Source: an uncultured Methanosarcinales archaeon (GTDB lineage: Archaea; Nanobdellota; Nanobdellia; Woesearchaeales; DSVV01). From it: a stretch of DNA of 64,000 nucleotides. Both the position numbers and the translations under genes were made by a program. The notes beneath the pieces are model-generated. The model was not told where the DNA came from, made no database searches, and was given only the letters and a program-made list of their open reading frames with translations. Numbering within the stretch: the first letter of the stretch is position 1; each line of letters begins with the position of its first letter. The stretch lies in the NCBI GenBank assembly GCA_964469935.1, contig CAYXZQ010000002.1, positions 319 through 64,318 on the forward strand, written 5' to 3'. This document shows positions 3,132 to 46,936 of the stretch, one piece after another.

Positions 3132-3926
3132 TCAATCTGAGAGCAGCCTTCTCAGCTTCTTCAGGTTCTCCAGGTCCTCTGAAAGATTCAGAAAATCTGT
3201 CTTGGGAGTCTCGAGCGAAAGATAAGCACCCTCAGGTATCTGCCTGACAAGATCCCTCAGGGGCAGGTCTCCATCGCCCAGGTGCAGATGCTCGTCTACT
3301 TCTTTATCCTTACGGCTGTCGCTGAGATGGAACATATAAGGTCCTAAACCCAGAAAATCCCTGACAAAACCCATCATCTTCCTACCATGCGTATTCGATG
3401 CTGCAATCGCGTGGCCGATGTCAAGGCAGAATCTGCAGCCGGTCTTGTCCAGCACTTCCCTGTATTCTTCAGGCCTGGATATGACCAGAGGGATATTGTT
3501 CTCATAGCCGACCGCAGGCACGTTCTCAAGTATGATGTCAAGCTCAGGCATAAGCCCTTTTATGTTCATGACAAGGCTCTGGACTGTGTCCCTTTTTTTG
3601 TCCAGCACATAGCCGGGGTGGAAGATTATCTTATTTTTGCCGAAAAACTCGGTGAATCTTCTGATTGTCTTGATTGATTCATGATAAGTCATGTCCTTGT
3701 TCGTGATGCTGAAGCCGTGGTTGTAGTTCGGGGCGTGGAATATGACAGGAACATCCTTAAGGATCTCAAGCTTAACGCCGTCGAACGTGCCGGGCACGAT
3801 GTAGAGCTCGACATAATCTATCAGCCCATCACTTAAGAATTCGGCAAGCTTCGTAAAGGACTCCTGGTTGATTGACCATATCTTGAGCCCCAGCCTGACC
3901 CTTTTTTCCCCCATTTGCAGGCCCAT
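3132..3926 (-). CDS. Sugar phosphate isomerase/epimerase, xylose-isomerase-like TIM-barrel family.
   Basis: Length and motifs ('IIFHPGY', 'CLDIGHA', a His/Asp/Glu metal-ligand pattern) fit the AP-endonuclease-2 / xylose-isomerase-like TIM fold. The likely start is MGLQMGEK (alternative starts at 3950 or 3914). Confidence 0.55.
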   Translation of the reverse strand: MGLQMGEKRVRLGLKIWSINQESFTKLAEFLSDGLIDYVELYIVPGTFDGVKLEILKDVPVIFHAPNYNHGFSITNKDMTYHESIKTIRRFTEFFGKNKIIFHPGYVLDKKRDTVQSLVMNIKGLMPELDIILENVPAVGYENNIPLVISRPEEYREVLDKTGCRFCLDIGHAIAASNTHGRKMMGFVRDFLGLGPYMFHLSDSRKDKEVDEHLHLGDGDLPLRDLVRQIPEGAYLSLETPKTDFLNLSEDLENLKKLRRLLSD

Positions 3927-4606
3927 TATCCTATTTCTCTGACCAGGCACAGCGCTTCTGCCAGTTCCAGCCCTGATTCCAGCCCCCTGAACTGCGCCAG
4001 TATCCTTATGCCTTCAAGAGACCTGGGATGGGGATATTTCCGAAGCTCGCTCCTGTACGCCTTCATCGCCTTAAGCTTGTCATCCATCACTCCTGAGATA
4101 TCATAGTAGACATTCGGCCTGAAGACACCCTCGCCCTTCGACTGCCATTCTGTAGACGACAAAGTCTCGAAAGCATATATCTTTTTCACGCAATCCTTTC
4201 CGATCGGCCTAGCCGCTGTCATAGCAGCCTGGAAGCAGATCCTGTGGTCGACATTGAGGTCGTTCTCGTGATGGGTATAGATTATGTCGGGCTTCAGCCT
4301 GTCCATGACCTTCTCGAACCCCTTGACAACATCCAGCAACGGCACTGAATCCATTGCATTGTCAGGGAAGTCGAGGAAGAAGACCTCTTTGAATCCCAGT
4401 ATGTCAGCTGCATTGAGGCTCTCCTTTCGCAGTCTCTTGACATCTGCATCAGTTTTCTTCCCCTTCGCGAGCCGTGAAGTCACGCCCTCGGCAGCGATTA
4501 AGCAGTAGACATCATCACCCGACCTGGCATGCCTCAGGACTGTCCCGCCTATGCCCAATACCTCGTCATCCGGATGGGCAGCTATGACAAGAACCTTATT
4601 CTTCAT
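3926..4606 (-). CDS. PIG-L/LmbE-family N-acetyl-sugar deacetylase.
   Basis: The N-terminus 'VLVIAAHPDDEVLGIGGT' carries the HPDDE zinc-binding signature of the PIG-L family. There is also a conserved 'HxxH'-like region 'YTHHENDLNVDH'. Confidence 0.8.
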   Translation of the reverse strand: MKNKVLVIAAHPDDEVLGIGGTVLRHARSGDDVYCLIAAEGVTSRLAKGKKTDADVKRLRKESLNAADILGFKEVFFLDFPDNAMDSVPLLDVVKGFEKVMDRLKPDIIYTHHENDLNVDHRICFQAAMTAARPIGKDCVKKIYAFETLSSTEWQSKGEGVFRPNVYYDISGVMDDKLKAMKAYRSELRKYPHPRSLEGIRILAQFRGLESGLELAEALCLVREIG

Positions 4607-5321
4607 CTTCCATCACCCTGATCGTCACATGAGCCCTGACTTTCCCGTCCGAAAGCCTGGATCTGGTGAACTCCAGCCTGAGCCTGCCTGATTCGATGAA
4701 CGCAGGCGGATAGCCCTCTCCGTCGAGCATCCTTATCCAGTCATGGACCTTCGATATTGCTGCGTCGTCAGGAATCCTGCTCTCTTCCGGTGTCCTCCTC
4801 TTGAACTCCACTACCTCGCCCTCCTGCTTTTTCGGGGCTGGTCTGTCCCTGATGATCTCTGCCATCATCCGAAATATGATGTCAGAGGCTTTCCTGAATA
4901 TCTCTTCAGCGCTGCCGCTCGAAAGGTCGAGGTCCCTCTTCATGTATATGTCGCCTGCATCAAGCCCCTTCACGACCCTTATCGCCGATATCTTTGTCCT
5001 GTATATCCCTCTTGAGATGAGGTTCTGCAGCGGGCTTCCCCCTCTTCCGAACGGAAGGTCTGTCATGTGGAAGACCACGCACTCGAAATCCTCGTAGACA
5101 TCTTTCGGGATTATCCATGACCAGTGCGGGAAGAACACGTACGCGGGGTTCAGCTCCCTGAGCCTCTCGGATGTCAGGTCTTCCTTCTTGTCTATCAGTG
5201 TCCAGCTGAAGCTGTCGAGCTCCTTCTCGATCTTGTTGAAATTGCCGACATTCCATGACTTGATCGTCACGACTACCATGTTCTTCTTGTCGTCTGTCAT
5301 TGTCTCATTTGCCATGCTCAT
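4596..5321 (-). CDS. Formyltransferase-fold protein (Fmt/ArnA N-domain-like). Putative sugar N-formyl or N-acyl transferase.
   Basis: 'VVFHMTDLPFGRGGSPLQNLISRGIYRTKISAIRVVKGLDAGDIYMK' aligns with the formyl_trans_N core 'H.SLLP..RG..P......G....G.T.H.....D.GDI'. The usual Asn two residues before the catalytic His is Val/Phe here. Confidence 0.6.
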   Translation of the reverse strand: MSMANETMTDDKKNMVVVTIKSWNVGNFNKIEKELDSFSWTLIDKKEDLTSERLRELNPAYVFFPHWSWIIPKDVYEDFECVVFHMTDLPFGRGGSPLQNLISRGIYRTKISAIRVVKGLDAGDIYMKRDLDLSSGSAEEIFRKASDIIFRMMAEIIRDRPAPKKQEGEVVEFKRRTPEESRIPDDAAISKVHDWIRMLDGEGYPPAFIESGRLRLEFTRSRLSDGKVRAHVTIRVMEDEE

Positions 5322-5782
5322 CTTGCATACCTCAACTCGACAAATTCCCCGTGGTCCTTGTGCAGCTTGTATCCGCTCTTCTCGAACGCCCTTACAGATG
5401 CTATGTTCTCGTGCTTGATATTGGCGATGATGTACTGCACGTCGAAATTGTCAAGGTAGAACCTGGCGGATTCTTTCAGCACCCTGGTACCTATGCCCCT
5501 GCTCCTGGACTCCGGGGCGATTGCGATGTCTATCTCTGCATGCCTTCCCTCCCTGTCGAACCTCACCTGGCCGAGCTTGCTGCCTTTACTGTCAGTGACG
5601 ATGAACAAGTTCCTCTTCGGGTTTGAAAGCGAGCTGCCGAACCACTTTACATGGTCTTTCTTCTGCACCTTCTTGGTATTGAATGAGTACTTCCTCGTGA
5701 CCGGGTCGTTTCTCCATCTTAGAAGGTCTTCGGAATCCTCCGGCCCGGCGAACCTGAAATATATCTCGTCAGTCATCGGCAT
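5318..5782 (-). CDS. GNAT-family N-acetyltransferase (PseH-like role).
   Basis: It is 154 aa. 'RSRGIGTRVL' is the acetyl-CoA binding motif (R/Q-x-x-G-x-G/A). It is wedged between NeuB and formyltransferase-like genes with 4-14 nt overlaps. Confidence 0.7.
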   Translation of the reverse strand: MPMTDEIYFRFAGPEDSEDLLRWRNDPVTRKYSFNTKKVQKKDHVKWFGSSLSNPKRNLFIVTDSKGSKLGQVRFDREGRHAEIDIAIAPESRSRGIGTRVLKESARFYLDNFDVQYIIANIKHENIASVRAFEKSGYKLHKDHGEFVELRYAR

Positions 5783-6859: not shown

Positions 6860-7903
6860 TTATACAAACATGCCTTCTTCTAAAAATACGTCTTTTTTGA
6901 CATCAGTCCTGAGTCTCCTGCCAAGGAATTCCTCGTACCTGTCAGCTGTTATGCCTGTGCCCGGCCTCCTGAAATCCAGGTCCTCCAGTTTCAAGACTGC
7001 TCCTTTTTTGAGGTCCTTGATAGCCACAAGGCTCCTCCTTCCCGCAAGCCCGGGCCTGAGCGCGAACACGTCCTCCGGCTTTCCTACAGCCCTCTCTATC
7101 TTGCGGACATTCTCGACAAAACCCTTGAGCTCATGAGGCTCGAGAGACATGTAATGCTCGGCGCTCCTCGTGGTCTTGTCAAGGGTTATTGTCTTCTCGA
7201 TGCAGTCGGCTCCGAAGCCCATGCATGCGTAATCCATCAGGGCGTCGACCGAATGGTCGGAGAACCCGACAGGGCAGTCGAACCTGTCCTTGAGAAATTG
7301 GAGCACAGAGAAGTTTATCTCCTCGTCCCTGCAGGGGTAGCCCGGCGGGCAGTGCATTATCATGATATTGTCGTTCCCATTGCCCCTGCAGACGCTGACA
7401 GCCCTTTCCAGCTCTTCGAGGGTCCCCCTCGCGTCAAGTATGACAGGAAGGCCTGATTTTGCCGCATACCTGATGAGGAAGGTATGGTTTATGTCCGCTG
7501 CTGCAATCTTGATTGCGCATGAGCCGATCTCCTTCAGGAGCTCCACCTCTTCGGGGAAGAACGCGGTGGAGAAGAACAGGATGCCCAGCTCGTCGCAGTA
7601 CTCCTTTAGCTCCTTCCACTGCGCGACAGGAAGCTCCCTCCTCTTGAGTATGTCATATAATCTCTCTGTCACGTCGCCGTCAGCTGTCCCGTATGTGAAA
7701 TCCACGGACTTGTCGCCCATGAGCCTGTCGACGTCCATTATCTGGAACTTGACAGCATCCGCCCCTGAATCGGCAGCTGCCTTGCAGAGCCTCTTTCCGG
7801 ACTCGAGGTCGTATATGGTAGGTCCTGCCTCAAGCACGATGAAGCATGGCTCGCCTTCTCCGACTGTCCTGTTTCCTATCCTCAATTTCCTGGCTTTCTT
7901 CAT
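6860..7903 (-). CDS. NeuB-family nonulosonic acid synthase, copy 2 (paralog).
   Basis: 'GEGEPCFIVLEAGPT...SGADAVKFQI' and a C-terminal SAF-like 'RRSLVAIKDLKKGAVLKLEDLDFRRPG'. It is a distinct paralog, only partly alignable to copy 1. Confidence 0.8.
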   Translation of the reverse strand: MKKARKLRIGNRTVGEGEPCFIVLEAGPTIYDLESGKRLCKAAADSGADAVKFQIMDVDRLMGDKSVDFTYGTADGDVTERLYDILKRRELPVAQWKELKEYCDELGILFFSTAFFPEEVELLKEIGSCAIKIAAADINHTFLIRYAAKSGLPVILDARGTLEELERAVSVCRGNGNDNIMIMHCPPGYPCRDEEINFSVLQFLKDRFDCPVGFSDHSVDALMDYACMGFGADCIEKTITLDKTTRSAEHYMSLEPHELKGFVENVRKIERAVGKPEDVFALRPGLAGRRSLVAIKDLKKGAVLKLEDLDFRRPGTGITADRYEEFLGRRLRTDVKKDVFLEEGMFV

Positions 7904-8580
7904 TTTACTCTCCTGATTAGATATTCTGCCAGCTCGAGGTCGAAAGGCTCGTTTATGTCGACAGTCCTCTTCGGGGGTATGTAGTATCCCACTATCCTCT
8001 CGCCGTAGTATGTCCTGTCCTTCCTGAGCTGGGCTGCTCTTGCGAAAATTATGGAGCCGTCGTGGACAAAGACCTCGGGATTCTTCTGGTCCTGTGTCAG
8101 GTATTCCCTGCCGTAAAGCGGATTGAGAAACCCGTCGCCTCCCTTCTTGAGCGCCCTGAATGGTGAATACCTGTAGTCTGTTACGGACATGAGATAGTCA
8201 GCTCCTGAGGATTCGAACAGCTCGAATGCTTTCCTGATGTCATCACCGGCCCTCAGGGGGCTTGTCGGCAGCAGTATGCAGATTGCCTCTACGGCGAAGC
8301 CCTTCTTTTCATACTTTGATATGGCATCTATGCATACCTGCGGCACAGTCGCGTCGTCGCTTCCGAGCGCGACATCTCTAATAAGCACTTCAGCCCCTAG
8401 TCCTTCGGCGATACCTGCTATCTCTTCATCGTCTGTCGATACGACGATCCTGTCGAATATCGCTGCCTTTTCTGCAGCTTCCACTGCGTATTGGAGCAAT
8501 GGCTTCTTATCCAGAAGAGCTATGTTCTTCCTCGGGAACCTCTTCGAGCCTCCTCTTGCAGGGATTATTGCCATCAGCAT
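7900..8580 (-). CDS. CMP-nonulosonic acid synthetase (acylneuraminate cytidylyltransferase, NeuA/PseF/LegF family).
   Basis: 'AIIPARGGSKRFPRKNI' is the canonical CMP-NeuAc synthetase N-terminal motif. It is 226 aa. Confidence 0.85.
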   Translation of the reverse strand: MLMAIIPARGGSKRFPRKNIALLDKKPLLQYAVEAAEKAAIFDRIVVSTDDEEIAGIAEGLGAEVLIRDVALGSDDATVPQVCIDAISKYEKKGFAVEAICILLPTSPLRAGDDIRKAFELFESSGADYLMSVTDYRYSPFRALKKGGDGFLNPLYGREYLTQDQKNPEVFVHDGSIIFARAAQLRKDRTYYGERIVGYYIPPKRTVDINEPFDLELAEYLIRRVK

Positions 8581-8687
8581 GGCGCAGAGTATTGGATAAG
8601 CATTTAAATAAGTTATGAATTGCAGACTTTAACAGACATTAATAAAATATTTAAATGTTGATTATCAGGTCAAGTGAGGGTGATATA
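8581..8687. promoter_or_regulatory. Divergent promoter region between the CMP-sugar synthetase operon (-) and the amidotransferase operon (+). It has two TATA-like boxes and an SD-like GGTGA before the + start.
   Basis: The AT-rich block reads 'gcatttaaataagttatgaa' and 'aaaatatttaaatgttg'. 'gagggtgatataATG' sits ahead of MRYCARC. Archaeal TATA consensus is TTTAWATA. Confidence 0.45.
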
Positions 8688-9953
8688 ATGAGATATTGTG
8701 CAAGGTGCGTATATCCTGAGAATGCAAAGCCAGCTATAATCTTCGACGAAGAGGGTGTCTGCAGCGGATGCAGGCTTCACGAGTCGAGGCCAAAGATTGA
8801 CTGGGACAAGCAGATGGAAAAGCTCAAGGAGATCCTGAAGGAGTACAGCAAGAAAGCGAGGGCGAACGGGTCGAAATACGACTGCATCATTCCTGTCAGC
8901 GGAGGCAAGGACAGCCATTTCCAGACCTATGTGATAAAGAAGCTGCTCGGGTACAATCCGCTGCTCGTCTGCTATAACCACGGCTTCAATACAAAGAGGG
9001 GAATCAGGAATCTCACTAACATGACAACGCAGTTCGGTACTGACATCCTCAGGTTCACTACCAATCCCGAGAGCGCGAGAAAGCTATCGACGTTCATGGT
9101 AAAGAAGGTGGGCGACCTGACCTGGCATTACCATGCAGGCATAACCACCTTTCCCATCAAGGCCGCGGTGATGTACAGGATCCCACTAATCATCTGGGGC
9201 GAGCACGGGTTTTCCGACATGCTCGGCATGTACAACCAGGAAGACATGCTGGAGTTCTCAAAGAAGGACAGGAGGGACCACAGCATGAGGGGCTTTGAGC
9301 CCGACGACATACTGGAGGACCCGGAAAACCCGGGAATAACCGAAGACGACCTTGACCCCTTCTATTATCCCAGCAACGAGGATATCGAAAAGGTGGGCGT
9401 GAGGGGTATCTTCCTTGCGAATTTCGTCCCCTGGGATGCAAGGAAGCACACTAAGCTGATGATCGACAAGTTCAATTTCGAGACAGCCCAAAAGCGCGAG
9501 AGGACATTCCACCTCTATGACAAGCTGGACGACATCCATGCCAACGGAACGCATGATTACCTGAAGTACCTCAAGTTCGGGTACGGCAGGGCGACAGACG
9601 ATGCGTCCATGGAGATACGCCACGGAAGGATGACAAGGGAGGAGGGCATCGAGATGGTAAAAAAATACGACCACGTGAGGCCGAGCGACCTTGACATCTG
9701 GCTGAAGTTCGTGGGCTGGGACGAGAAGAAGTTCTTGGACATGATAGAGCCAATGCGTGACAGCTCGATATGGGAGAAGAAGAACGGTGTCTGGGTAGCA
9801 AAGGACAGCGTGGCAAATCATGTCCATGACAAGGGCGTTGAAAAGGCAAGGCTCAAGCTCAAAGAGGACAGGAAGCCCATCGCGCCTACGAAAAGCCCGT
9901 ATTACTCCCGGGACGACCATGTCGAGGAGGACAAGGAATACATCTGGTTATGA
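8688..9953 (+). CDS. N-acetyl-sugar amidotransferase (PP-loop ATPase, WbuX/AglX/PseA-like). Acetamidino group formation.
   Basis: N-terminal zinc ribbon 'MRYCARCVYP...CSGC'. PP-loop 'IIPVSGGKDSHFQ' (SGGxDS). Immediately followed by HisH- and HisF-like genes with overlapping stop/start. Confidence 0.75.
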   Translation: MRYCARCVYPENAKPAIIFDEEGVCSGCRLHESRPKIDWDKQMEKLKEILKEYSKKARANGSKYDCIIPVSGGKDSHFQTYVIKKLLGYNPLLVCYNHGFNTKRGIRNLTNMTTQFGTDILRFTTNPESARKLSTFMVKKVGDLTWHYHAGITTFPIKAAVMYRIPLIIWGEHGFSDMLGMYNQEDMLEFSKKDRRDHSMRGFEPDDILEDPENPGITEDDLDPFYYPSNEDIEKVGVRGIFLANFVPWDARKHTKLMIDKFNFETAQKRERTFHLYDKLDDIHANGTHDYLKYLKFGYGRATDDASMEIRHGRMTREEGIEMVKKYDHVRPSDLDIWLKFVGWDEKKFLDMIEPMRDSSIWEKKNGVWVAKDSVANHVHDKGVEKARLKLKEDRKPIAPTKSPYYSRDDHVEEDKEYIWL

Positions 9954-10573
9954 TGATAGCCATCATCGACTACGGGGCGAGCAACCTCAGGTCGGTCGCC
10001 AATGCCCTGGAGGCACTTGGCACTGAATTTTTCATATGCTCTGACCCTTCAGACCTGCCGAAGGCTGACGGCATGATCCTGCCCGGGGTGGGCGCGTTTG
10101 CCGACGGCATGGGCAAGCTTGAGAGGATGGGGATGAAGGATGCCCTGGAATCCGAGGTATTGGAAAAGAAGAAGCCTTATCTCGGGATATGCCTCGGCAT
10201 GCAGTTCCTCGGGGAAGAGAGCGAGGAGCACGGTCTTTGCAGGGGATTCGGCTGGATGAAGGGCCGGGTGAGGAAGATTAAGCACGTGGACGGCTTCAAG
10301 ATCCCTCACATGGGCTGGAACGACACCGAGCTCAGGGAGGACGTGCCGATATTTTCCGGCCTCGGTAAAAGCGGGGTATTCTATTATGTCCACAGCTATT
10401 TCTTTGATGCCGAGGAGAAAGATACGATAATCGCCACCACGTTCCATGCAGAGAAGCTGATCGCCGGGGTGCAGAAGGGCAACATCATAGGGGTCCAGTT
10501 CCACCCGGAAAAGAGCCAGGGCGCAGGGTTGATGCTCCTGAAGAATTTCGTAAGGTTCGTGAAAGATGGTTAA
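9950..10573 (+). CDS. Glutamine amidotransferase subunit, HisH-like (WbuY/AglY-like).
   Basis: 'MIAIIDYGASNLRSV', 'LPGVGAF', catalytic Cys in 'GICLGMQ' and 'VQFHPEKS' make the class-I GATase triad, as in imidazole glycerol phosphate synthase HisH. Confidence 0.8.
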   Translation: MMIAIIDYGASNLRSVANALEALGTEFFICSDPSDLPKADGMILPGVGAFADGMGKLERMGMKDALESEVLEKKKPYLGICLGMQFLGEESEEHGLCRGFGWMKGRVRKIKHVDGFKIPHMGWNDTELREDVPIFSGLGKSGVFYYVHSYFFDAEEKDTIIATTFHAEKLIAGVQKGNIIGVQFHPEKSQGAGLMLLKNFVRFVKDG

Positions 10574-11351
10574 GAACAGGCTCATAGCGTGCCTTCTCTG
10601 GAAGGACGGAATACTCGTGCAGAGCAGGAATTTCAGGCATACCAATGCAGTGGGCAACGCTTTTGTCGCTGTCGAGTTCTTCAACAACTGGGCGATCGAC
10701 GAGATAGTCATACTCAACGTGACCAGGGGGGGCCCGGAAAAGGAGAAGTTCGTGGATTCCATAAATGAGATCTCCAAGAGATGCTTTGTTCCGCTAAGCG
10801 TAGGCGGGTTCATAGATTCAGTCAAGGATATCAGGCTGCTTCTCGCATCAGGGGCGGACAAGGTGGTCATCAACACCATGGCATTCAGGAACAACAGCCT
10901 GGTGACCGAAGGGGCGAAAATGTTCGGGAGCCAGTGTATAGTCGTCTCCATCGATGCAAAGGGTGACGAGGTGTATGTTGCACAGGGATCAGAGGCTACA
11001 GGGCTGAAACCTGCCGCCTGGGCAAAGAGATGCGAGGAGCTCGGCGCAGGCGAGATATTCCTCACTTCTATCGAGCAGGACGGGCAGGGGAAGGGATATG
11101 ATCTTAAATTGATAGGCGAGGTTGCGGAAGCGGTCAGCATCCCTGTAATCGCATCAGGCGGAGTGGGGGAATGGAAGCATTTTGTCGAAGGCATAAAGGC
11201 CGGAGCTGATGCTGTGTCTGCAGCGAACATCTTCCATTATTCAGATCAGAGCACGAAGAAGGCAAAGAATTACATGAAGGAAGCGGGAATAGACGTGAGA
11301 GAGCCTGTATTCTATGACATAAAGACCCCGAGGCGCCCCAGGTATTTCTGA
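10566..11351 (+). CDS. Cyclase subunit, HisF-like (WbuZ/AglZ-like).
   Basis: 'RLIACLLWKDGILVQS', 'VPLSVGGFI', 'GADKVVINT' and 'IPVIASGGVG' form the HisF (beta/alpha)8 signature. It overlaps the HisH-like gene by 8 nt. Confidence 0.8.
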   Translation: MVKNRLIACLLWKDGILVQSRNFRHTNAVGNAFVAVEFFNNWAIDEIVILNVTRGGPEKEKFVDSINEISKRCFVPLSVGGFIDSVKDIRLLLASGADKVVINTMAFRNNSLVTEGAKMFGSQCIVVSIDAKGDEVYVAQGSEATGLKPAAWAKRCEELGAGEIFLTSIEQDGQGKGYDLKLIGEVAEAVSIPVIASGGVGEWKHFVEGIKAGADAVSAANIFHYSDQSTKKAKNYMKEAGIDVREPVFYDIKTPRRPRYF

Positions 11352-11385: not shown

Positions 11386-12513
11386 TCAGAAGAATTCCTT
11401 TATACTGGTGATTATCGTATCAGTTTCCTCATCTGTGAGCCCCGGATAGATGGGTATGCTCAGTATCCTGCCGTAGAATTCCTCTGCTCTCGGGCAGAGC
11501 CCCCTTTCGTAACCGAGTCCCTGGTACAAAGGATGGAGGTACACGGGGATGTAGTGCACCTGGCAGTTTATACCGCTTTTCGACAGGTGCTCGAAAAGGC
11601 CGAGCCTCTTTTTTGGTGTGTCAAGCATTATGATGAATAGATGATATGCATGGGTCCGGTCATTCGGAACTCCGATGAGCTCTATCTCCCTGACCGGTCC
11701 GAGCTCTTTTTGATACTTCCCGGCAATCTTTTGCCTGTCCCTGATGAACCTTTCTGCCTTGGTCAGCTGTCCCAGGCCGAGCGCGCACTGGATGTCAGTC
11801 AGTCTGTAGTTGTACCCGAGCTCCTGGATCTCATGATACCATGGGCCGTCGGGCCTGCCCACAAATTCTTTCGGCTCCTTTGTGATGCCGTGGTTCCTGA
11901 GCTTTTTCAGCCTCTTGTAAATCTTTTCCGAATTGGTCGTTATCATGCCGCCTTCCCCGGTTGTCATGAGCTTGACAGGATGGAAGCTGAATGTGCACAT
12001 GTCAGAGTGCCTGCAATCCCCTATCCTTGAGCCTTTGTACTCTGCCCCTAGCGCGTGGGAGCAGTCCTCTATGACTGTGAGGCCGTGCTTTTTAGCGATA
12101 GCTGAGATTTGCTCCATGTTGCACGGAAGTCCTGCAAGATGCACGGGTATGAGAGCCCTGGTCTTCTTGGTTACAGATTTTTCGACCTCTTCAGGGTTTA
12201 TCAGGCCGTGCTTGTCGATATCGGCGAACACCGGCCTTGCCCCGCAGTAAAGCGCGCAGTTTGCGCTGGCGGCAAATGTTATCGGCGATGTTATGACCTC
12301 CCCTCCCTTCACGCCCGCCGCCAGGCAGGCCAGGTGCAGGGCTGCGGTGCCGTTGCTGACAGCGACTGCGAACCTGGCTCCGACAAACTCCGCGAACCTC
12401 TTCTCGAACCTGTCCACAAGCGGTCCTGTTGTCAAAAAATCGCTCCTGAGCACGTCTGATACTGCCTTTATGTCATCTTCGCCGATTGTCTGCCTGCCAT
12501 AGTTGATCGCCAT
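11386..12513 (-). CDS. DegT/DnrJ/EryC1/StrS-family PLP-dependent sugar aminotransferase (PseC/LegC-like).
   Basis: 'NGTAALHLACLAAG' and 'CTFSFHPVKLMTTGEGGMITT' (PLP-lysine motif SFHxxK) in a 375-aa protein. Confidence 0.85.
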   Translation of the reverse strand: MAINYGRQTIGEDDIKAVSDVLRSDFLTTGPLVDRFEKRFAEFVGARFAVAVSNGTAALHLACLAAGVKGGEVITSPITFAASANCALYCGARPVFADIDKHGLINPEEVEKSVTKKTRALIPVHLAGLPCNMEQISAIAKKHGLTVIEDCSHALGAEYKGSRIGDCRHSDMCTFSFHPVKLMTTGEGGMITTNSEKIYKRLKKLRNHGITKEPKEFVGRPDGPWYHEIQELGYNYRLTDIQCALGLGQLTKAERFIRDRQKIAGKYQKELGPVREIELIGVPNDRTHAYHLFIIMLDTPKKRLGLFEHLSKSGINCQVHYIPVYLHPLYQGLGYERGLCPRAEEFYGRILSIPIYPGLTDEETDTIITSIKEFF

Positions 12514-13812
12514 TCATACAACACCCTTGGACTTTGCGAAATCGCCTATCATCTTCTGGTAATGCCCCTTGTTCTCAAGGACCTTTGGAAAAGTTCTGTA
12601 GCGTGACCTGAAAAAATCGTATTTCCTGATGAAAGGCAGGTACAGTATCATGTAATGGACCATGTTGAATATCACAGTGTTGAGATACAGTCCAGGAGAA
12701 AAGCGCCTCTTCTTAGGCTTGTTCTTCTTCAGGAAACTGTCTATCTTCCGGGCTGTCCGAAACCCGTTCAGACCGTCCAGGTATTCCGATTTCATGCGGA
12801 CGAACCCTTTCCTGAACCCCGACCTGTCGTCGAATGCCTTGATATGTCCATACCTGTAGAATTCGTCGATGTAGGACTGAAGCTCCCCGATGCTGCCTGC
12901 GATGACATTCCCCTCGTGCATCCTGCTATACCATTTGCTGTAGTCCTCTGCCTCGGGGACGACCTGGATGACGGGCTTGCCGAGTATCCACGACTCGACA
13001 GATGTTGTGCTGTCATACACCAGCCAGATGTCTGAGACGTTTATGAGGTCGTAGATGTTCTCCTCGTACTGCATGACGATTGCGTTGTCCAGCTCCGACC
13101 ATTCGTCCAGGATCTCGAGGACCCCTGGCAGGAGGCCCGGATGCTTCTTGAAGATGAACAGGATGTCGGGATTGTCGGCCAGGGCCCTTCCGAGAACGTC
13201 CCTGACGAACTCCAGGTCGAGCTTCCTGCGCTCGACCTCCTCATCTGAATATTCAAAGGGATTCGTCTCCCTTCTTTTCTCGTCGACGAAATAGCTGAAG
13301 TTCCAGCCGGCATAGGTCAAGACCTTGCTGAATCTCGTCTTGCCGTATTTTTTCAGGAGCGTCTTCTTGTCCTTGTATTTCATCCACCTGTACTTGTCAA
13401 AGCCCACTGCCCCTGACACGTCTATCACTCCCTTGTAATCCGGGCAGTCGGCAAGGACGTCTTCTTTTATCTTCCTGTTCCAGACAAACCTCAGGTCGAC
13501 GTTCATCTCCCTCCTGGTGTTGTAGCCCCAGAATGTGTCGAGGACCTGGGACTCGTGGTTGGACTCTGCGCTCAGCGAGACCGTGGTCATTCCGAGTCTC
13601 TTTGCGTACCTGGCGAACATGACCGCGTAAAAATCCCCGTTCGCGTCGGTGAGAAGGAGATATTTCGGCCTGTGCCTGAAGAGGGCGTGCAGGTCGAAAT
13701 GAGGGACGACCTTGACAGAATAACCCCCTCTCTCGAGATAGTACATCACGTTGTACAGGACAAGGGTGTCCCGCTCGACGTATCCCACCTGCGGAACGAG
13801 GATGTCCACCAT
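12514..13812 (-). CDS. TagF/TagB-like CDP-alcohol (glycerol/ribitol-phosphate) phosphotransferase family protein. It may instead be a related GT-B capsule/nonulosonic-acid transferase.
   Basis: 'IFKKHPGLLPG' (KxHP motif) and 'IYDLINVSDIWLVYDSTTSVESWILGKPVIQV' resemble the Glyphos_transf catalytic core ('D...LITDYSS...E...KP.I'). Confidence 0.45.
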   Translation of the reverse strand: MVDILVPQVGYVERDTLVLYNVMYYLERGGYSVKVVPHFDLHALFRHRPKYLLLTDANGDFYAVMFARYAKRLGMTTVSLSAESNHESQVLDTFWGYNTRREMNVDLRFVWNRKIKEDVLADCPDYKGVIDVSGAVGFDKYRWMKYKDKKTLLKKYGKTRFSKVLTYAGWNFSYFVDEKRRETNPFEYSDEEVERRKLDLEFVRDVLGRALADNPDILFIFKKHPGLLPGVLEILDEWSELDNAIVMQYEENIYDLINVSDIWLVYDSTTSVESWILGKPVIQVVPEAEDYSKWYSRMHEGNVIAGSIGELQSYIDEFYRYGHIKAFDDRSGFRKGFVRMKSEYLDGLNGFRTARKIDSFLKKNKPKKRRFSPGLYLNTVIFNMVHYMILYLPFIRKYDFFRSRYRTFPKVLENKGHYQKMIGDFAKSKGVV

Positions 13813-13813
13813 T

Positions 13814-14863
13814 TTACAAGAGTCCCTGGCTCCGGAAGAAATCCTCGGCCTCGTCCCTGCTGATGAGATTGTCCTTCGAGCTGTATTCGTCCATGTCCTT
13901 CTCTGTCATCTTCCTGCCCTTGAAATAAGCAGGCTTCCTGTCGTCTATATACTTCTCTATCTGCGATACTATGATGTAGTTTCCCTTGTATTCGTACGTC
14001 CTGGGCACTTCGCTGGAGTTGATCATCACCTCATGGAGCTTCTCGCCGGGTCTTATGCCGATTACCTCCACGCTGTTTTTGCTCCTGTTCTTGGATTTGA
14101 GTATGTCGATAAGGTCTATTATCCTGAAGGAAGGCAGTCTCGGGACAAAGACCTCCCCTCCTCGGCCTGTCTCGAATGCGTCGAATATGAGCTTGACAGC
14201 CTGCTCAGGGGTGATGATGAAGCGCGTCATGCGCTCGTCGGTCAGGGGTATCTTGTCCCCGTTCCTTATCTTCTCCTCGAAGAACGGGATGACAGAGCCG
14301 GTGCTCTCAAGCACGTTGCCGTACCTCACGCAAAGGAACCTGGTCGGGCACGTGCCCTTGTTGTAATTGCTCTCGATGAATATCCTCTCGCCGACGAACT
14401 TTGATGCCCCGTAGGTATTCACGGGAGAGCATGCCTTGTCAGTCGAGACGAAGACGGCTTTCTCGACCCTGTTTGCGAGGCATGCATTGACCACGTTGAG
14501 CGTGCCGAGGATGTTTGTCTTGATCGATTCCTCCACATTGTACTCGATCATGTCCAGCCTCTTCAGGGCTGCGGCATGGATGACGATGTCTGCGTCCCGC
14601 ATGGCCTTGTGCAGCCTCTCATAATCCCTCACGTCTCCTATCAGGTTCCTGAGCCTCGGGTCATTGCCGAAAAGCTCCTGGGTTCTGTGATGCTTGACCT
14701 CGTCCCTGGAAAAGAGCCTGATGCTCTGGGGCTTTTGCTTGAGCAGCTCTTTTGTCAGGGCGATCCCGAGATATCCCGTGCCCCCTGTTATCAGTATGGT
14801 CTTGTCCTTGAAAATCTTGCTCGCCTCCGGCCGGATATGTATGGAAACAGTGCCCGTCTCCAC
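13814..14863 (-). CDS. UDP-N-acetylglucosamine 4,6-dehydratase (CapD/PseB/LegB family SDR).
   Basis: 'ILITGGTGYLG' Rossmann motif. 'STDKACSPVNTYGASK' matches the CapD/FlaA1 catalytic S-Y-K region. It is 349 aa. Confidence 0.85.
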   Translation of the reverse strand: METGTVSIHIRPEASKIFKDKTILITGGTGYLGIALTKELLKQKPQSIRLFSRDEVKHHRTQELFGNDPRLRNLIGDVRDYERLHKAMRDADIVIHAAALKRLDMIEYNVEESIKTNILGTLNVVNACLANRVEKAVFVSTDKACSPVNTYGASKFVGERIFIESNYNKGTCPTRFLCVRYGNVLESTGSVIPFFEEKIRNGDKIPLTDERMTRFIITPEQAVKLIFDAFETGRGGEVFVPRLPSFRIIDLIDILKSKNRSKNSVEVIGIRPGEKLHEVMINSSEVPRTYEYKGNYIIVSQIEKYIDDRKPAYFKGRKMTEKDMDEYSSKDNLISRDEAEDFFRSQGLL

Positions 14864-14940: not shown

Positions 14941-16473
14941 TCATGTCCTGAATATGAGGCCCGGGTCGAGCCTGGAAATGTTTGTCCAGATGTCCCTTAC
15001 AAAGATCTTGTACAGCATCGAGATGACCTTTGTCTTCCTGTCGACATAAAAGAGGAGCGGGATGTTCAGTATGCAGAATATCACGTATTTCACAGCCGGC
15101 ACGACGAACGATGCGAGGCCTTCGCCTGCGGAATAGTCGAAGAGGCCGAGCACGTAGAAGAGCAGCGCCATGTAGGCGAAAGGGAAAACGTACATGCCTG
15201 TGGATTTGAGAATGTCCGGGACATTGAATCTCAGCGTCTTCAGGGTGTAGAAGCAGAAAATGAAGAACTCGATGAGATAGGCGATAAGCGTAGCGAGCGC
15301 GACGCCCAGGAGGCCGTAGCCCTGGCTGATGTATATTATGTTGAGGACCAGCACGAAAGCGATCATCATGGTCCTTATGGCGATGATGTTCCATTCGAAG
15401 TTTATCGAGATCAGAAAATTCGTTATCGGGATCTTGGCTGATGCGAAGAAGGCGGCAAACATAAGGATGTACACTATAGGGATCGCGGGTATGTATTTTG
15501 GGACAAAAAAGTTCACGAACGGGTTCAGGAAGAAGAATGCGCCTGCGATGATGAAGGGAATGGAGTAGGCTATGACCGTTGTGGGCACCAGTATGTAGTT
15601 CTTCATCTTCGAGTATGAGTTCCACCTGCCGTACGCCTCGATCTGTCTCGGGAACATGACGCCACCTATGGCCTGCGGTATGTAGCCGACTATCTCGATG
15701 ATGAACACCGCAAAGCCGTAGTATCCCAGCAGGGTCGTTGTGTAGAACCTTATCACCATCCATTTGTCGACTGTCAGGAAGGCTGTGGATATTATGTATA
15801 CCAGGGCAGGGAGGATGCCTGATTTTATCATGAGTGTCAGCGCCTTTTTTCTCATGTTCTTCGGGCTGAAGCTGAATTTATAAGGGGCGATGACGAGTCC
15901 TGTAACCGTTGTTATGATGTATGATATTATGAATGCCGCAAGGACGCCGTCGAGCCCGTATGGTCCGGCCAAAAGCAGCACGAGGATGAGCTTGCTTGCC
16001 GAGAGGACGACATTGAGGATGCCCGCTGCCCAGAATTTCTTGTCGATCCTGAGGAAATTGAGCTGGAAGAAGTTGAAGTGCTGGAAGAGGATGATTGCGG
16101 AGAGCAGCCTCAGCCCTGTCAGGGTCTCATGGCTGTAGTTGAGGATGAATGAGCTGATGAAGGCTCCGACAGCTATCAGGAGCATGATGTAGAACGTCGG
16201 GCCGAAAGTGAGGTCCCTGACCTCCTGGATCTCCTTGTCGCTCCTGCCCCTTCCCCTTATGAAGGGTATCCTCTTGTAGCTTGCGGAGTACAGCGGAAGG
16301 AACGCGAACCTGGTGTATTCGAGCACCAGCATGAGCGCCGAGTACAGCCCGAACAGCGAGACAGAAAGCTGCTTTAGGAGATAGGTCGTGGTGATCACGA
16401 CAAGAAAGAACGACGTGTACTTGCATACAGAGAACACGACCGTATCCTTGATTATCGAATGTTCCTCGCCCAT
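14941..16473 (-). CDS. Wzx-like oligosaccharide/polysaccharide flippase (MOP superfamily).
   Basis: 510 aa, roughly 12-14 predicted hydrophobic helices, no soluble domain. A TATA-like 'tttttata' lies about 30 nt upstream of the ATG. Confidence 0.65.
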   Translation of the reverse strand: MGEEHSIIKDTVVFSVCKYTSFFLVVITTTYLLKQLSVSLFGLYSALMLVLEYTRFAFLPLYSASYKRIPFIRGRGRSDKEIQEVRDLTFGPTFYIMLLIAVGAFISSFILNYSHETLTGLRLLSAIILFQHFNFFQLNFLRIDKKFWAAGILNVVLSASKLILVLLLAGPYGLDGVLAAFIISYIITTVTGLVIAPYKFSFSPKNMRKKALTLMIKSGILPALVYIISTAFLTVDKWMVIRFYTTTLLGYYGFAVFIIEIVGYIPQAIGGVMFPRQIEAYGRWNSYSKMKNYILVPTTVIAYSIPFIIAGAFFFLNPFVNFFVPKYIPAIPIVYILMFAAFFASAKIPITNFLISINFEWNIIAIRTMMIAFVLVLNIIYISQGYGLLGVALATLIAYLIEFFIFCFYTLKTLRFNVPDILKSTGMYVFPFAYMALLFYVLGLFDYSAGEGLASFVVPAVKYVIFCILNIPLLFYVDRKTKVISMLYKIFVRDIWTNISRLDPGLIFRT

Positions 16474-19880: not shown

Positions 19881-20209
19881 TTCTTCTTCTCCTGCCTCAG
19901 TGCGATCTCCCTGGTAAGCTTTGTCATGTCCTGCTCAAGCTTCTCGATCTTGGAATATATCCTGTATACCGAGTAAATCAAAAACACGATGCTCAGGTAC
20001 ACGAGGACGTCCACCCCCCTGCCGATGCCGAATATCTGGGCAGGGATGGCGGTGATCCTCGGGACAAGCACCACGACGACAACCGACACCCACACCACTA
20101 TCCAGAGCAAAAATTCCAGGAGCGATTCCGTGTTCTTCCTGTACCTGAGATACGATCTGCTCAGCGCGAATGCCGCAAACAAAATGATTATTACCTGCAA
20201 CAACATCAT
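19877..20209 (-). CDS. DUF2304-like small membrane protein that partners with a GT2.
   Basis: Two TM helices plus a C-terminal coiled-coil 'IEKLEQDMTKLTREIALRQEKKK'. The start MMLLQV lies 11 nt after the GT2 stop. The long ORF-track N-terminus overlapping the GT2 is rejected. Confidence 0.5.
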   Translation of the reverse strand: MMLLQVIIILFAAFALSRSYLRYRKNTESLLEFLLWIVVWVSVVVVVLVPRITAIPAQIFGIGRGVDVLVYLSIVFLIYSVYRIYSKIEKLEQDMTKLTREIALRQEKKK

Positions 20210-20220
20210 TATCACCTTTC

Positions 20221-20898: not shown

Positions 20899-20910
20899 TT
20901 GGATCGCATC

Positions 20911-27781: not shown

Positions 27782-27942
27782 CGCCTTGAAAAAATCGACC
27801 GCTTCCACAGGAGCGTGAAAAAAAAATTTGATTATATAAATCTTTTTAAAAATCATCTGGCGGTGCATAGGGAACTGCCTCGGTCAGGCGGTTTTTTCTA
27901 TAGAAGCTTTTATAAATACCGTGCATTTCATTTGGGCTGTCA

Positions 27943-31191: not shown

Positions 31192-34100
31192 TTATTTAGC
31201 GTCGATGAGCTTGACTATCTCGTAGCCGTAGGCGGTCTGAAACGGCTTTGAAACGTCTCCTACCTGCAGGCTGAAGACCTGGTCCTCGAATGCCTTCGGC
31301 ATGACCCCCCTTCCGAACCATCCCAGGTTGCACCTGACTGTCTCGTCGCTGCATTCTGAATACTGCTGAGCCAGCTCATCGAAATTGTCAGGGGTTATCA
31401 TGCCGTATATCTTGTCTGCAAGGGCCGATGCCTGCTCATCCGTCCTGTTTGAAGTGCTTATGAGTATATGTTCCACCTTTGCAAGGGTCTTCTCCTGGAT
31501 AGGGTCCTGTGTCGTGTTGCCGGGGGAAACTGCCTGCGAAGTGTCCGTGGTTGCCTGCTCTGTCTGCGATGAGGCAGTGTCGACAGCTGGGGCCTGGCTG
31601 ACGCTTGCATTCCTTCCTGCCCAGTCGACCTTCCACGTGATAATCTTCGCTCCGGTGATGTCCCTTACATTGTTGAAGGAGTCGAAATGGGTGAGTCCCG
31701 CACCCTCGAAATAGAACAGCCTCGTGAACATGCTTCCCGCAAGGTCAGCGTCCATCAGGACCGACTGGTAGGTCCCGCCGGACTCCACGATGGCTGCACC
31801 TAGCGGCCTTCCGTCCTGGGACGTGATGTAGTTGCCTGCGTACTGCTTGACCCTGAACTGCCCGTACTTGTCAATGAATGATATTGCCCTGACATTGAGC
31901 GACGTCCCCTGTACTGACGCCTCTTCGGTCGAGAGGTCGAACTGGAGGCCGTTGCTGCACGAGACTGTGTTATCGCTCACCGTGCACGCTGTGAGATCTC
32001 CTGCATAGCTCGGCCACGGCGCGATCCACTGGTCCGGGTCCGTGGTCTTTATTTGGTTGTAGATGCTGAGGGCTGCAGTGCTGTTCAGGCCAAAATTGTC
32101 CTCAAGGTATGAGACTCCGTCTATCTGGTTCTTGTTGTACACCTTGTTGTACTGCTCGGCTCTCGTGAAATTCCATGCGCCGAAATGCGCCCATACCCCC
32201 GACTTGCCGACCATGTCTTCGCTGGTTATGAAATAGTCTTCGGGCGGGCTGCAGTGGGTGTACTGCAACACGTCCTCTGCCTGCGCGTCTGTAAGGCCTT
32301 TTGAGAGCAGGACGCTCTTTGCAGATGCCCTGTCGAGCACGATTATCTGGTATATCGTATCTATTGTCTTCAGTGAGTCGTTGTCCATGTACGGGAGCAG
32401 TGTGTCGAAGCCCGTGTTGGAGCCGCAGTCGAGGTATCTCAGTATCCCCACTGATTCAGTCTCGTTCCATGTGAGCATGAGCTTGCCCAGCCAGTGGGCT
32501 GCGGGGTTGTTCTGCCTCCCTCCGTCAAGGGTCACCCTCCTGTCTCCGATGGCTGCGAACCAATGGCCGAAGTCCCACCATGAATTGATGATGGCGTCAG
32601 GCTTGGACTGGTCCTTTATCTTGGTCAGCGAGGAATACCAGCTGTCGTCCATCGTTGGCACCTCGTTGAGGGCCGTGGTCTTTGCAGCCGATACAATGTT
32701 GATGGGAAAGAACATGAGCGCGCAGAAGATGGCGATGATTGCGCCGTAGGCGAATATCTTGTTCACCGTAAGCTCCTTTGATATCCATTCCGAGACCTCG
32801 GTGGTGACGATACCGGCTGTTATCCCGCAGGCGATAGAATATGCCGGGACCAGGAGAAGGATGAACCTGACTCCTTTTGAGCTTGCATATATCGTCGAGG
32901 CGAACCAGATGGCAAGTATCAATGAATATCTTATGTCCAGCTCTGTTCCCACGACCATTGTGTACAGGATGTATCCAGCGATAGGCAGAAATATTAGCAC
33001 TGCATAAAGCAGCTGGCTCTTGACCGCGCCCTGTATTATTATTATGAACAGGTACCAAACAGCGCTTATGGCGAGGAAATAGAGGCTGTCCTTCTTTTCG
33101 GATTTGAGATTGCCGAGAGGGAGCACAAGGCCTATGAGAGCGATGAAGTACCATATCTTGCTCCCGAGGCTGATCTGGCTGATCGTCGAGTTGAGCGTGG
33201 CAGGATTCAGCTCGGCCACTGTCGTGTACACGTTCGGCCATATCTTCTGGACTCCCACCTGCTTGAGCTGGGTGAATCCTATGGTGCCCTGGAAGAAGTT
33301 TATGAAATCCCCCCATGATTTGATGAGGGTCACGAACAACGCTGACAGGATGAAGAATGCGGCTGTTATGAGGAGCGCGTTCTTAAGCCTCTCGATCGAA
33401 AGCATTTTTTTCGGATTTTTGAAGATTGCCTTGCGGTTCATTATCCCGTGGTATGCTATGATGCCGAGGAGCATCACGATTACGAAATCAAAGATGAAGT
33501 ACCACGCGGTCCACGCGAAGCTGAACAGCCCCACGCAGAAGGCCGCAAGCCCTGCAAGTATGATGGTCTTTGTCCTGCTCCTGCTGTTGAGGGCCTCGAG
33601 AAGGAGCCATGTTATCATTAGAGGGAAGAAGACGTTGTAGGCGTCGGTGTCTGAGAACCCGCCTATGGTCCTTGAAAGCAATGCAGGGTGGATGGCTATC
33701 AGGACACCTGCGATGAACCCGCCGAAATCACCGGCTATCCTTCTCGTTATGAAAAATGCCGGGATGATTATCAGAGTCCCGAAGATGAGCGGCGTGAAGA
33801 ACACCACGTACATGAGGTCGACGTTGGGATTGAATAGTGCTGCAATCCTGTACATGACATATTGCACCAGGACATGGAAGTGCACGATTCTCTTGTCAGT
33901 GCCCTTGCCCATCGGCTGGCCTGCGAGGACCTTCGTGTCATGATAATACCCGTCAGGGCTCTGGTAGTCCCCTTCAAAGCCGTGGTCGATGACGTCCTCT
34001 GTCATCCTGTAATAATAGTACGGGTCTATGGCAAGAAGATACGTGTGGCCGTAATCATTCTGGAACCTCGACCTGAAATATTCCGAGTTCTGGCTTATGA

Positions 34101-34452
34101 CCTGGGAGATATCTACGTTCTGGCCCTGGATGTTGATCTGTCCTGTCTGGAGTATCTGGCTGAACTGGTCATTGACTATCTGGTTCTTGTTGGTGTCGGG
34201 GAGATTAGGATACTGTGTGGAGACCTGGCTCTTTATTGTCGACTTGATATTGTTGTAGATGGTGTTCTGGGCCCACTGGTCCGTTATCGGCAGGTAAACC
34301 GGCATGGCCCTCAGGTAAATGCTCAGGATGATGGGGATCAGGATCAGTATTACTGTTATGGATTTCTTCATCAGGGCCTTGTTTGAGAAAAACCCTTTCA
34401 GCTTCTTCAGATCAAGGCTCAGTTCCTCTTCCTTCTCCTTACCCTTGGACAA
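31192..34452 (-). CDS. aglB: STT3/AglB-family oligosaccharyltransferase fused to a C-terminal parvulin-type peptidyl-prolyl isomerase domain (1086 aa).
   Basis: EL1 motif 'AIDPYYYYR' and 'SWWDFGHW' (WWDYG variant). A Ser/Thr/Gln-rich linker follows. The C-terminus 'EHILIS...LGWFGRGVMPKAFEDQVFSLQVGDVSKPFQTAYGYEIVKL' aligns with PpiC/parvulin. Confidence 0.8.
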   Translation of the reverse strand: MSKGKEKEEELSLDLKKLKGFFSNKALMKKSITVILILIPIILSIYLRAMPVYLPITDQWAQNTIYNNIKSTIKSQVSTQYPNLPDTNKNQIVNDQFSQILQTGQINIQGQNVDISQVISQNSEYFRSRFQNDYGHTYLLAIDPYYYYRMTEDVIDHGFEGDYQSPDGYYHDTKVLAGQPMGKGTDKRIVHFHVLVQYVMYRIAALFNPNVDLMYVVFFTPLIFGTLIIIPAFFITRRIAGDFGGFIAGVLIAIHPALLSRTIGGFSDTDAYNVFFPLMITWLLLEALNSRSRTKTIILAGLAAFCVGLFSFAWTAWYFIFDFVIVMLLGIIAYHGIMNRKAIFKNPKKMLSIERLKNALLITAAFFILSALFVTLIKSWGDFINFFQGTIGFTQLKQVGVQKIWPNVYTTVAELNPATLNSTISQISLGSKIWYFIALIGLVLPLGNLKSEKKDSLYFLAISAVWYLFIIIIQGAVKSQLLYAVLIFLPIAGYILYTMVVGTELDIRYSLILAIWFASTIYASSKGVRFILLLVPAYSIACGITAGIVTTEVSEWISKELTVNKIFAYGAIIAIFCALMFFPINIVSAAKTTALNEVPTMDDSWYSSLTKIKDQSKPDAIINSWWDFGHWFAAIGDRRVTLDGGRQNNPAAHWLGKLMLTWNETESVGILRYLDCGSNTGFDTLLPYMDNDSLKTIDTIYQIIVLDRASAKSVLLSKGLTDAQAEDVLQYTHCSPPEDYFITSEDMVGKSGVWAHFGAWNFTRAEQYNKVYNKNQIDGVSYLEDNFGLNSTAALSIYNQIKTTDPDQWIAPWPSYAGDLTACTVSDNTVSCSNGLQFDLSTEEASVQGTSLNVRAISFIDKYGQFRVKQYAGNYITSQDGRPLGAAIVESGGTYQSVLMDADLAGSMFTRLFYFEGAGLTHFDSFNNVRDITGAKIITWKVDWAGRNASVSQAPAVDTASSQTEQATTDTSQAVSPGNTTQDPIQEKTLAKVEHILISTSNRTDEQASALADKIYGMITPDNFDELAQQYSECSDETVRCNLGWFGRGVMPKAFEDQVFSLQVGDVSKPFQTAYGYEIVKLIDAK

Positions 34453-46594: not shown

Positions 46595-46936
46595 TCAGCT
46601 GATTCCAACCAAATCCCCTGTTTTCGATTTGGAACCTGATATTACGCCCTTTCTGGCTTCGATTACGTATTTTGCCTTGTTTTTCGACGTGTAGAAAGTA
46701 AACGGCAGGAAATTCTCCTTTAAGTCGACTATCTTCTTATCCCTGTCCAGGAAGATGACATCGATGGGAAAGAACACGAAGAACATGTGAAGGGATATTC
46801 TCCTCTCCTTCTCGAATATGAACAGGAGGCTCTTTTTGGGCGAGAACATGAGCCCCCTTGCCTTCTCGGGAACGCTCCTGCATTCGGTGAATTCCCCTGC
46901 GATGAGCTTTCCGCTTGTCAGATTCATTATCGCCAT
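46595..46936 (-). CDS. DUF192-family small protein.
   Basis: 113 aa. 'GLMF...LLFIF......ISLHM.FV.FPIDVIFLDRDKKIV' matches the COG1430/DUF192 pattern. Confidence 0.5.
   Translation of the reverse strand: MAIMNLTSGKLIAGEFTECRSVPEKARGLMFSPKKSLLFIFEKERRISLHMFFVFFPIDVIFLDRDKKIVDLKENFLPFTFYTSKNKAKYVIEARKGVISGSKSKTGDLVGIS

Follow-up and report, generated by a model that had tools for sequence, protein, structure and literature searches.

A predicted archaeal member of the BFO_1060/GtfS glycosyltransferase family, encoded within a pseudaminic-acid-type gene cluster

What does a protein do whose gene lies between pseB- and pseC-like genes in an archaeal genome, and whose motifs recall the teichoic-acid enzymes of bacteria? 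The gene in question, hereafter the candidate, occupies positions 12514 to 13812 of a 64,000-nt stretch of contig CAYXZQ010000002.1 (assembly GCA_964469935.1, from an uncultured archaeon); this whole stretch is called the window. A previous reading, made from the sequence only, had proposed a TagF-like polyol-phosphate transferase, with a GT-B nonulosonate transferase as the alternative. That interpretation is supported in part. The TagF-like proposal did not stand, whereas the alternative gained support from a full-length match to the NCBIfam family NF046086, from the pse gene cluster around the candidate and from linkage to such genes across the family. The protein is probably (about 70%) a membrane-associated GT-B transferase of a CMP-pseudaminic acid (CMP-Pse) derivative, belonging to the BFO_1060/GtfS family.

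Both the open reading frame (ORF) and the motif string reported earlier were recovered. The ORF runs from an ATG start to a TGA stop and encodes 432 amino acids (aa), and its translation yields KKHP and SDIWLVYDSTTSVESWILGKPVI. Its features are the following.

12514..13812, minus strand: candidate gene, 432-aa GT-B protein of the BFO_1060/GtfS family (ORF, NF046086, AlphaFold2 (AF2) model)
13564..13566, minus strand: E83, invariant Glu in the N-terminal domain loop after strand beta4 (codon checked)
13138-13149, minus strand: KxHP motif, K222-K-H224-P225 (translation)
12967-13035, minus strand: S260-I282, SDIWLVYDSTTSVESWILGKPVI, nucleotide-binding loop and helix of the C-terminal Rossmann domain (translation, conservation, alignments)
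12517..12726, minus strand: C-terminal tail, aa 363-432, basic, with one hydrophobic helix at 374-396 (composition, AF2 helices)

Family membership, conserved residues and fold

The candidate matched NF046086 ("BFO_1060 family glycosyltransferase") with 298.7 bits (E 6.2e-89), above the curated cut-off of 200. The match was full length, aa 12-362 being aligned to profile positions 9-365 of 365. On the same profile, bacterial homologues, including one from Tannerella, scored 408-411 bits. NCBIfam also returned TIGR04396 ("surface carbohydrate biosynthesis protein"), with a score below threshold. The closest orthologue is 93% identical and lies in a fully syntenic cluster of a 1.84-Mb metagenome-assembled genome (MAG) titled "uncultured Candidatus Woesearchaeota archaeon". 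Identity falls to 48-49% for three metagenomic relatives, to 25-34% for many bacterial homologues and to about 30% for the homologue of a Tannerella sp. Further homologues reached E 1e-33 in sequence searches, and an exhaustive profile search gave 645 cluster representatives at E<=1e-10, 243 of them at E<=1e-30. Given the 93% identical orthologue, the many homologues and the curated-family match (E 6e-89), the candidate is a real gene and not a chance ORF. On sequence grounds it is an archaeal member of a known, mostly bacterial family that is biochemically uncharacterised and whose enzymes are best understood as adding nine-carbon sugars akin to sialic acid onto glycans of the cell surface.

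The founding members of this family come from Tannerella forsythia. BFO_1060, from strain FDC 92A2, is the homologue of TFUB4_00887, itself the legionaminic acid (Leg)-type counterpart of Tanf_01245 (GtfS), the last two being 81% identical (PMC5420450; PMC6388019). Knock-out of Tanf_01245 or TFUB4_00887 leaves the S-layer O-glycan without its terminal Pse or Leg derivative, and cross-complementation between the two genes fails (PMC5420450; PMC6388019). Because CMP-Pse5Am7Gra persists in the Tanf_01245 mutant (PMC5420450), the founding members act after donor synthesis. A TagB-superfamily/GT-B domain and the HP motif of sialyltransferases were noted in these enzymes by the authors of that work (PMC5420450).

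The candidate resembles the T. forsythia proteins in size (432 versus 442-445 aa), in its conserved HP motif and GT-B/TagB-like domain, in the location of its gene next to a CMP-Pse or CMP-Leg synthesis locus, and in its probable donor, which would also bear an acetamidino group, as in Pse5Am7Gra. It differs from them in having an archaeal and not a Bacteroidota host, and in the position of its gene, which sits between pseB and pseC, whereas the T. forsythia gene is downstream of the locus. Its product probably ends up in an AglB-type N-glycan, in contrast to the O-glycan of the Bacteroidota. The candidate has a basic, hydrophobic C-terminal tail, whereas the T. forsythia enzymes have no predicted transmembrane region. 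Finally, two substitutions, N56D and G84S, set the sub-clade of the candidate apart.

Residue conservation was counted in an alignment of 150 family sequences. Within the KxHP motif, K222 is conserved in 91% of them (R in the remainder), H224 in 149 and P225 in all 150. The C-terminal domain's motif is also highly conserved, at D261 (145/150), S268 (135/150), T270 (131/150), E273 (148/150) and W275 (148/150). E83 is a Glu in every sequence, and the neighbouring position 84 is G in 142 of the 150 and S in the sub-clade of the candidate. Every family-invariant residue is kept by the candidate (R14, D15, E83, W111, G134, D139, K222, H224, P225, N243, D261, S268, T270, E273, W275, R334, D346, G347 and R352), and G84S, common to its sub-clade, is its sole departure at positions at least 95% conserved.

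Bacterial GT-B sialyltransferases (GT38 polysialyltransferase 5WC6, GT52, GT80) share with the candidate the HP motif and, as predicted for it, a CMP-nonulosonate donor. They are defined by a D/E-D/E-G motif and the HP motif (PMC5420450). For the former, the candidate offers only A82-E83-S84 (S-E-G in the majority of family members), which is not a literal match; E83 followed by G, as in 142 of 150 members, nevertheless resembles the catalytic D/E-D/E-G of the sialyltransferases. Neither Glyco_transf_52 nor any other sialyltransferase hidden Markov model (HMM) of Pfam matched the candidate. The same was true of the KpsS/KpsC-type Capsule_synth model, which, like GT52, had been suggested by the sequence-only reading and was absent from the Pfam matches at E<=10.

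The AF2 model of the candidate (pLDDT 85.4, pTM 0.84) consists of two Rossmann-like halves and three C-terminal helices. According to this model the fold is GT-B, nearest to the UDP-GlcNAc 2-epimerases and to TarL/TagF, and nearly all of the best 50 Foldseek matches were 2-epimerases. A PDB sequence search with the candidate or with a 12-sequence profile gave nothing useful, the one match being a chance one (E 0.14). With hhalign, the family aligned to WecB/NeuC with a probability of 94% (E 9e-8, 301 columns), and to TagF-like proteins with a probability of 20% (E 1e-3), a comparison that is not quite even, the TagF alignment being the less diverse. In the former alignment H224 falls on the H-P of the UDP-GlcNAc 2-epimerases, and the S260-I282 region on the epimerase segment TDSGGLQEEA. 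E83 is preceded by a predicted strand (76-80). As it comes right after strand beta4, it may occupy the position of H444 in TagF or of E117 in the epimerases.

The tail (aa 363-432) lies outside the NF046086 domain model. It contains 16 K/R versus 3 D/E in 70 aa, and helices are predicted by AF2 at 373-390, 396-406 and 408-428. The best 19-residue Kyte-Doolittle mean is 1.45, under the transmembrane threshold of 1.6. The tail probably anchors the protein monotopically in the membrane, as would be fitting for an enzyme acting on a lipid-linked acceptor.

Linkage to pseudaminic-acid genes in the window and across the family

The genes on either side of the candidate are listed below.

13814..14863, minus strand: PseB-like UDP-GlcNAc 4,6-dehydratase (inverting), directly upstream (TIGR03589, 356 bits, best match, below the 407.75 cut-off)
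11386..12513, minus strand: PseC aminotransferase, directly downstream (TIGR03588, 483.9 bits, cut-off 423.5)
8655..11351, plus strand: WbuX/HisH/WbuZ trio, turning an N-acetyl into an acetamidino group on a sugar (TIGR03573, 330.7 bits, cut-off 203.2; TIGR01855, 229.5 bits; TIGR03572, 255.5 bits, below 299.7)
7900..8580, minus strand: PseF-like CMP-nonulosonate synthetase, supplier of the predicted CMP-sugar donor (TIGR03584, 170.2 bits, best match, below the 205.7 cut-off)
6860-7903 and 5769-6845, minus strand: two tandem NeuB/PseI-like nonulosonate synthases (TIGR03569 and TIGR03586, 207-327 bits, all below cut-offs)
5318-5782, minus strand: PseH-like GNAT
4596-5321, minus strand: formyltransferase-like protein
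3926-4606, minus strand: PIG-L/LmbE deacetylase
3132-3950, minus strand: xylose-isomerase-like TIM barrel

All of the PseB-, PseC-, PseF-, PseH- and PseI-like genes, as well as the WbuX/HisH/WbuZ trio, are within 9 kb of the candidate. The pseB-candidate junction reads TAA-A-ATG (1 nt gap), and the candidate-pseC junction TGA-ATG (0 nt gap). As PseC exceeds its equivalog cut-off and the upstream gene has PseB as its best match, the donor is predicted to be a Pse derivative, and this derivative probably bears an acetamidino group. The four genes at 3132..5782 (GNAT, formyltransferase-like, deacetylase and TIM barrel) probably encode N-acyl tailoring enzymes. The tandem arrangement of the two synthases is kept in the related MAG. 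A few bacterial loci (L025, L040 and L074) likewise contain a better match to the second of the two (41-43%).

Around 79 bacterial homologues, pse-type genes were searched for within 10 kb. NeuB/PseI-like genes were found in about 50 of these loci, PseC-like genes in 49, PseB-like genes in 45 and PseF-like genes in 35. With X standing for the family member, the usual bacterial order is X-pseB-pseC-pseF-...-pseI. Some of the loci are of Leg type, for example that of Tannerella sp. oral taxon 808, which has a NeuC-type epimerase. The order pseB-X-pseC recurs around the MAG orthologue (93% identical) and around a metagenomic relative with 48% identity. The latter (L083, JGI 3300017613, 4.1 kb, 38% GC) encodes a PseB and a PseC that are 69% and 60% identical to those of the window. 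It suggests a wider, possibly archaeal, sub-clade in which the gene is embedded between pseB and pseC.

Alternative donors and activities

Several observations weigh against the assignment as a CMP-Pse transferase. In vitro activity has been reported for no member of the BFO_1060/GtfS family, the T. forsythia evidence being purely genetic (PMC5420450). The identity of the candidate to bacterial members is low (25-34%), and its sub-clade carries G84S, beside the invariant E83, as well as N56D. About one third of the bacterial loci are without nonulosonate genes nearby, many of these being short contigs. Finally, a recognisable pseG is missing from the cluster, and the pathway thereby departs from the textbook version.

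The homologue loci that lack nonulosonate genes within reach would fit a GT-B enzyme whose donor is a UDP- or GDP-sugar and whose gene just happens to lie among Pse genes, and the window does encode a GDP-mannose 4,6-dehydratase and WecB. Such an enzyme is unlikely, given that the nonulosonate linkage is strong and recurs across phyla, that the T. forsythia genetics speak against it, and that K-x-H-P together with S-T-T is a signature of CMP-releasing enzymes (TagF-like enzymes, bacterial sialyltransferases) and not of GT4 or GT1.

The missing pseG leads to another rival. No PseG-like ORF was found in the 64-kb window, either with a single PseG sequence (validated by its score of 158 bits versus a cut-off of 153.55) or with a profile built from 35 PseG sequences. 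Together with the epimerase-like fold, this raises the question of whether the candidate replaces PseG. In the archaeal sub-clade, it would then be a nucleotide-sugar hydrolase or hydrolysing epimerase, removing UDP from UDP-2,4-diacetamido-2,4,6-trideoxy-L-altrose instead of, or besides, acting in transfer. The wedging of the gene between pseB and pseC, the 94% hhalign probability to the WecB/NeuC family, and the changes N56D and G84S near the putative active site are all in line with this. However, a family member and PseG occur together in 35 bacterial loci, an example being the above-cut-off PseG-PseH fusion in L039, so the BFO_1060/GtfS family is not a general PseG substitute; moreover, the T. 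forsythia mutant still produces CMP-Pse. On these two grounds, identification of the candidate with the missing PseG was rejected as the principal interpretation. The candidate also has no match to TIGR03590 of NCBIfam, reaches only E 1.3 on the local profile of 35 PseG sequences, and keeps all family-invariant residues, and a pseG may lie elsewhere in the genome.

The UDP-GlcNAc 2-epimerases themselves, including the hydrolysing NeuC/LegG (Epimerase_2; 1V4V, 5ZLR, 1F6D), are akin in fold, yet the candidate matched none of the Epimerase_2, WecB and NeuC HMMs (Pfam; TIGR00236 and TIGR03568 of NCBIfam); the window's own WecB scores 421 bits. The acidic triad of these enzymes had no confident mapping onto the candidate with hhalign, and, in contrast to epimerisation, the genetics of the BFO_1060/GtfS family indicate a transfer step after CMP activation. 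Hydrolysis has a small chance of being the activity of the candidate; if it were, the protein would be a PseG analogue of a new kind, in place of a transferase or in addition to one.

The TagF/TagB-like activity proposed by the sequence-only reading, in which a CDP-polyol would donate glycerol- or ribitol-phosphate to the glycan, rested on the region around KxHP and YDSTTS. There, Pfam PF04464 (Glyphos_transf) does match, but with 18.1 bits (E 0.0014), below its gathering cut-off of 22.1, and over aa 212-293 only (82 residues). For comparison, Glyphos_transf proteins were fetched with a synthetic consensus-like bait; all carry PF04464, and one of them matches TagF 3L7I at E 6e-108. The hhalign alignment of the C-terminal domains places VLTYAGW on VIMYAPTW, GAVGFD on GYPRND, and SDIWLVYDSTTS on SDCLITDYSSVM of TagF. 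S260-I282 (SDIWLVYDSTTSVESWILGKPVI) is aligned to SDCLITDYSSVMFDYGILKRPQF of TagF, and H224 to H584, the second invariant His, which contacts the donor phosphate. Since CMP is released by TagF-like enzymes as well as by nonulosonate transferases, one would expect the two groups to share a CMP-binding C-terminal domain, with K-x-H-P, a loop rich in S/T and a Glu on the next helix.

In the N-terminal half the two families part. TagF-like enzymes depend on two invariant His, namely H444 (in W-H-G) and H584 in TagF, and H300 and H433 in TarL (PMC10901376); the TagF numbering was confirmed by a PDB alignment, in which the H444N and H584A mutant chains are visible. No position from 1 to 200 has a His at a frequency of at least 20% in the 150 family sequences, and the first catalytic His is therefore absent. 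The invariant residues of this domain are instead R14, D15, E83 (150/150), W111, G134 and D139. The WHG motif of TagF falls in an alignment gap, and the N-terminal domain alignment to TagF was not significant, locally or globally. Thus, the comparison of the two catalytic His, proposed earlier as a check and as part of a refuting condition, had a divided outcome: the second has its counterpart in H224 and the first has none, so that the condition is half borne out.

The supply of a CDP-polyol was also considered. The earlier remark that no TagD-like cytidylyltransferase is nearby was borne out, the sole cytidylyltransferase of the cluster being the PseF-like one (7900-8580), and no TagD, TarI or TarJ gene was found in the cluster. 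One gene pair is the sole conceivable source of a CDP-polyol in the window.

49475-50107, plus strand: IspD/MobA-like nucleotidyltransferase, 36 kb from the candidate
50777-51571, minus strand: inositol monophosphatase family gene, next to the IspD/MobA-like gene

These two genes may belong to a CDP-alcohol or inositol-phosphate pathway. A regular-expression scan of 82 loci found no TagF-like "KxHP...DYSS" protein. TagF-like CDP-polyol phosphotransferases (PF04464; S. epidermidis TagF 3L7I, S. aureus TarL 8VA1, TagB) transfer polyol phosphate, whereas the candidate is predicted to transfer a sugar. With a sub-threshold HMM match, an overall hhalign probability of 20%, no counterpart of the W-H-G His, no supply genes in the cluster and a score that exceeds another family's curated cut-off, a polyol-phosphate transferase is very unlikely.

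Surrounding glycan genes and proposed role

Other features of the window are as follows.

14941..16473, minus strand: 510-aa membrane protein with 12 hydrophobic segments (Kyte-Doolittle mean >=1.6), upstream of the candidate and in the same direction (no Pfam/NCBIfam match)
16570-17517, minus strand: 315-aa protein (no Pfam/NCBIfam match)
19877-21765 and 27392-27868, minus strand: UbiA-family decaprenyl-phosphate phosphoribosyltransferase-like gene, AglJ/PpgS-like GT2, DUF2304 protein and GtrA-like protein
31192..34452, minus strand: STT3/AglB oligosaccharyltransferase with a C-terminal PPIC-type peptidyl-prolyl isomerase, 1086 aa (PF02516, 145.6 bits; PF00639, 71.1 bits)
37440-39473, plus strand: long RelA/SpoT homologue with HD_4, RelA_SpoT, TGS and ACT domains
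44278-44427, plus strand: tRNA match of 150 nt (Rfam tRNA, 47.6 bits, all 71 model positions; uncalled by ARAGORN)
46927..49383, minus strand: second, weaker STT3/AglB-like oligosaccharyltransferase (PF02516, 59.3 bits)

The 510-aa membrane protein is possibly a glycan flippase. Its identity to the MAG orthologue is 95-96%, as is that of PseB; the corresponding values are about 80% for the GT4 glycosyltransferase and WecB, and 62% for the 315-aa protein, which may be a fast-evolving, glycan-specific component. The GT4 and WecB (421 bits) genes lie further upstream, along with the AglJ/PpgS-like GT2 and the UbiA-family transferase. The UbiA-family, GT2, DUF2304 and GtrA-like genes suggest a polyprenyl-phosphate-sugar branch beside the Pse cluster. 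The STT3/AglB protein at 31192..34452 is likely to be a downstream user of the lipid-linked glycan; its fusion to a PPIC domain is unusual. The 150-nt tRNA match is consistent with an intron-containing archaeal tRNA. Long RelA/SpoT homologues are uncommon in Archaea, and the one in the window may be another bacterial acquisition. The two STT3/AglB genes, the putative intron-containing tRNA, a TsaD/Kae1-family gene and the label of the nearest genome (Candidatus Woesearchaeota) indicate an archaeal context, and the contents of the window fit an archaeal surface-glycan island.

For the favoured activity, that of a CMP-Pse transferase, we infer the following course. A Pse derivative would be moved from its CMP form onto a lipid-linked oligosaccharide at the cytoplasmic face of the membrane, where the enzyme would be kept by its basic, hydrophobic C-terminal tail. 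The C-terminal Rossmann domain would bind the CMP of the donor via K222/H224/P225, S268-T270 and E273. Within it, the KxHP motif is predicted to contact the phosphate of the CMP leaving group, and H224 would assist CMP departure. The N-terminal domain would bind the acceptor sugar, and the invariant E83 (or D139) may be the general base that deprotonates the acceptor hydroxyl. The finished glycan would then be flipped, and put on protein by one of the AglB enzymes of the window.

Little is known about transferases for Pse and Leg. By the time of a 2018 paper about legionaminic acid in archaea (PMC6137143), no such enzyme had been identified in that domain. Our literature searches on pseudaminic or nonulosonic acid in DPANN archaea or in archaeal N-glycans gave no papers, and nothing newer than 2018. 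A GtfS-family gene in an archaeal pseudaminic-acid cluster is mildly interesting and not surprising; a teichoic-acid-like system in an archaeon would have been the surprise, and the result is chiefly a corrected annotation. It extends a mainly Bacteroidota family into a genome labelled Woesearchaeota, and it provides a concrete, testable candidate for an archaeal Pse transferase that would feed AglB-type glycosylation; as far as our searches show, it is the first concrete candidate for a nonulosonate transferase in Archaea.

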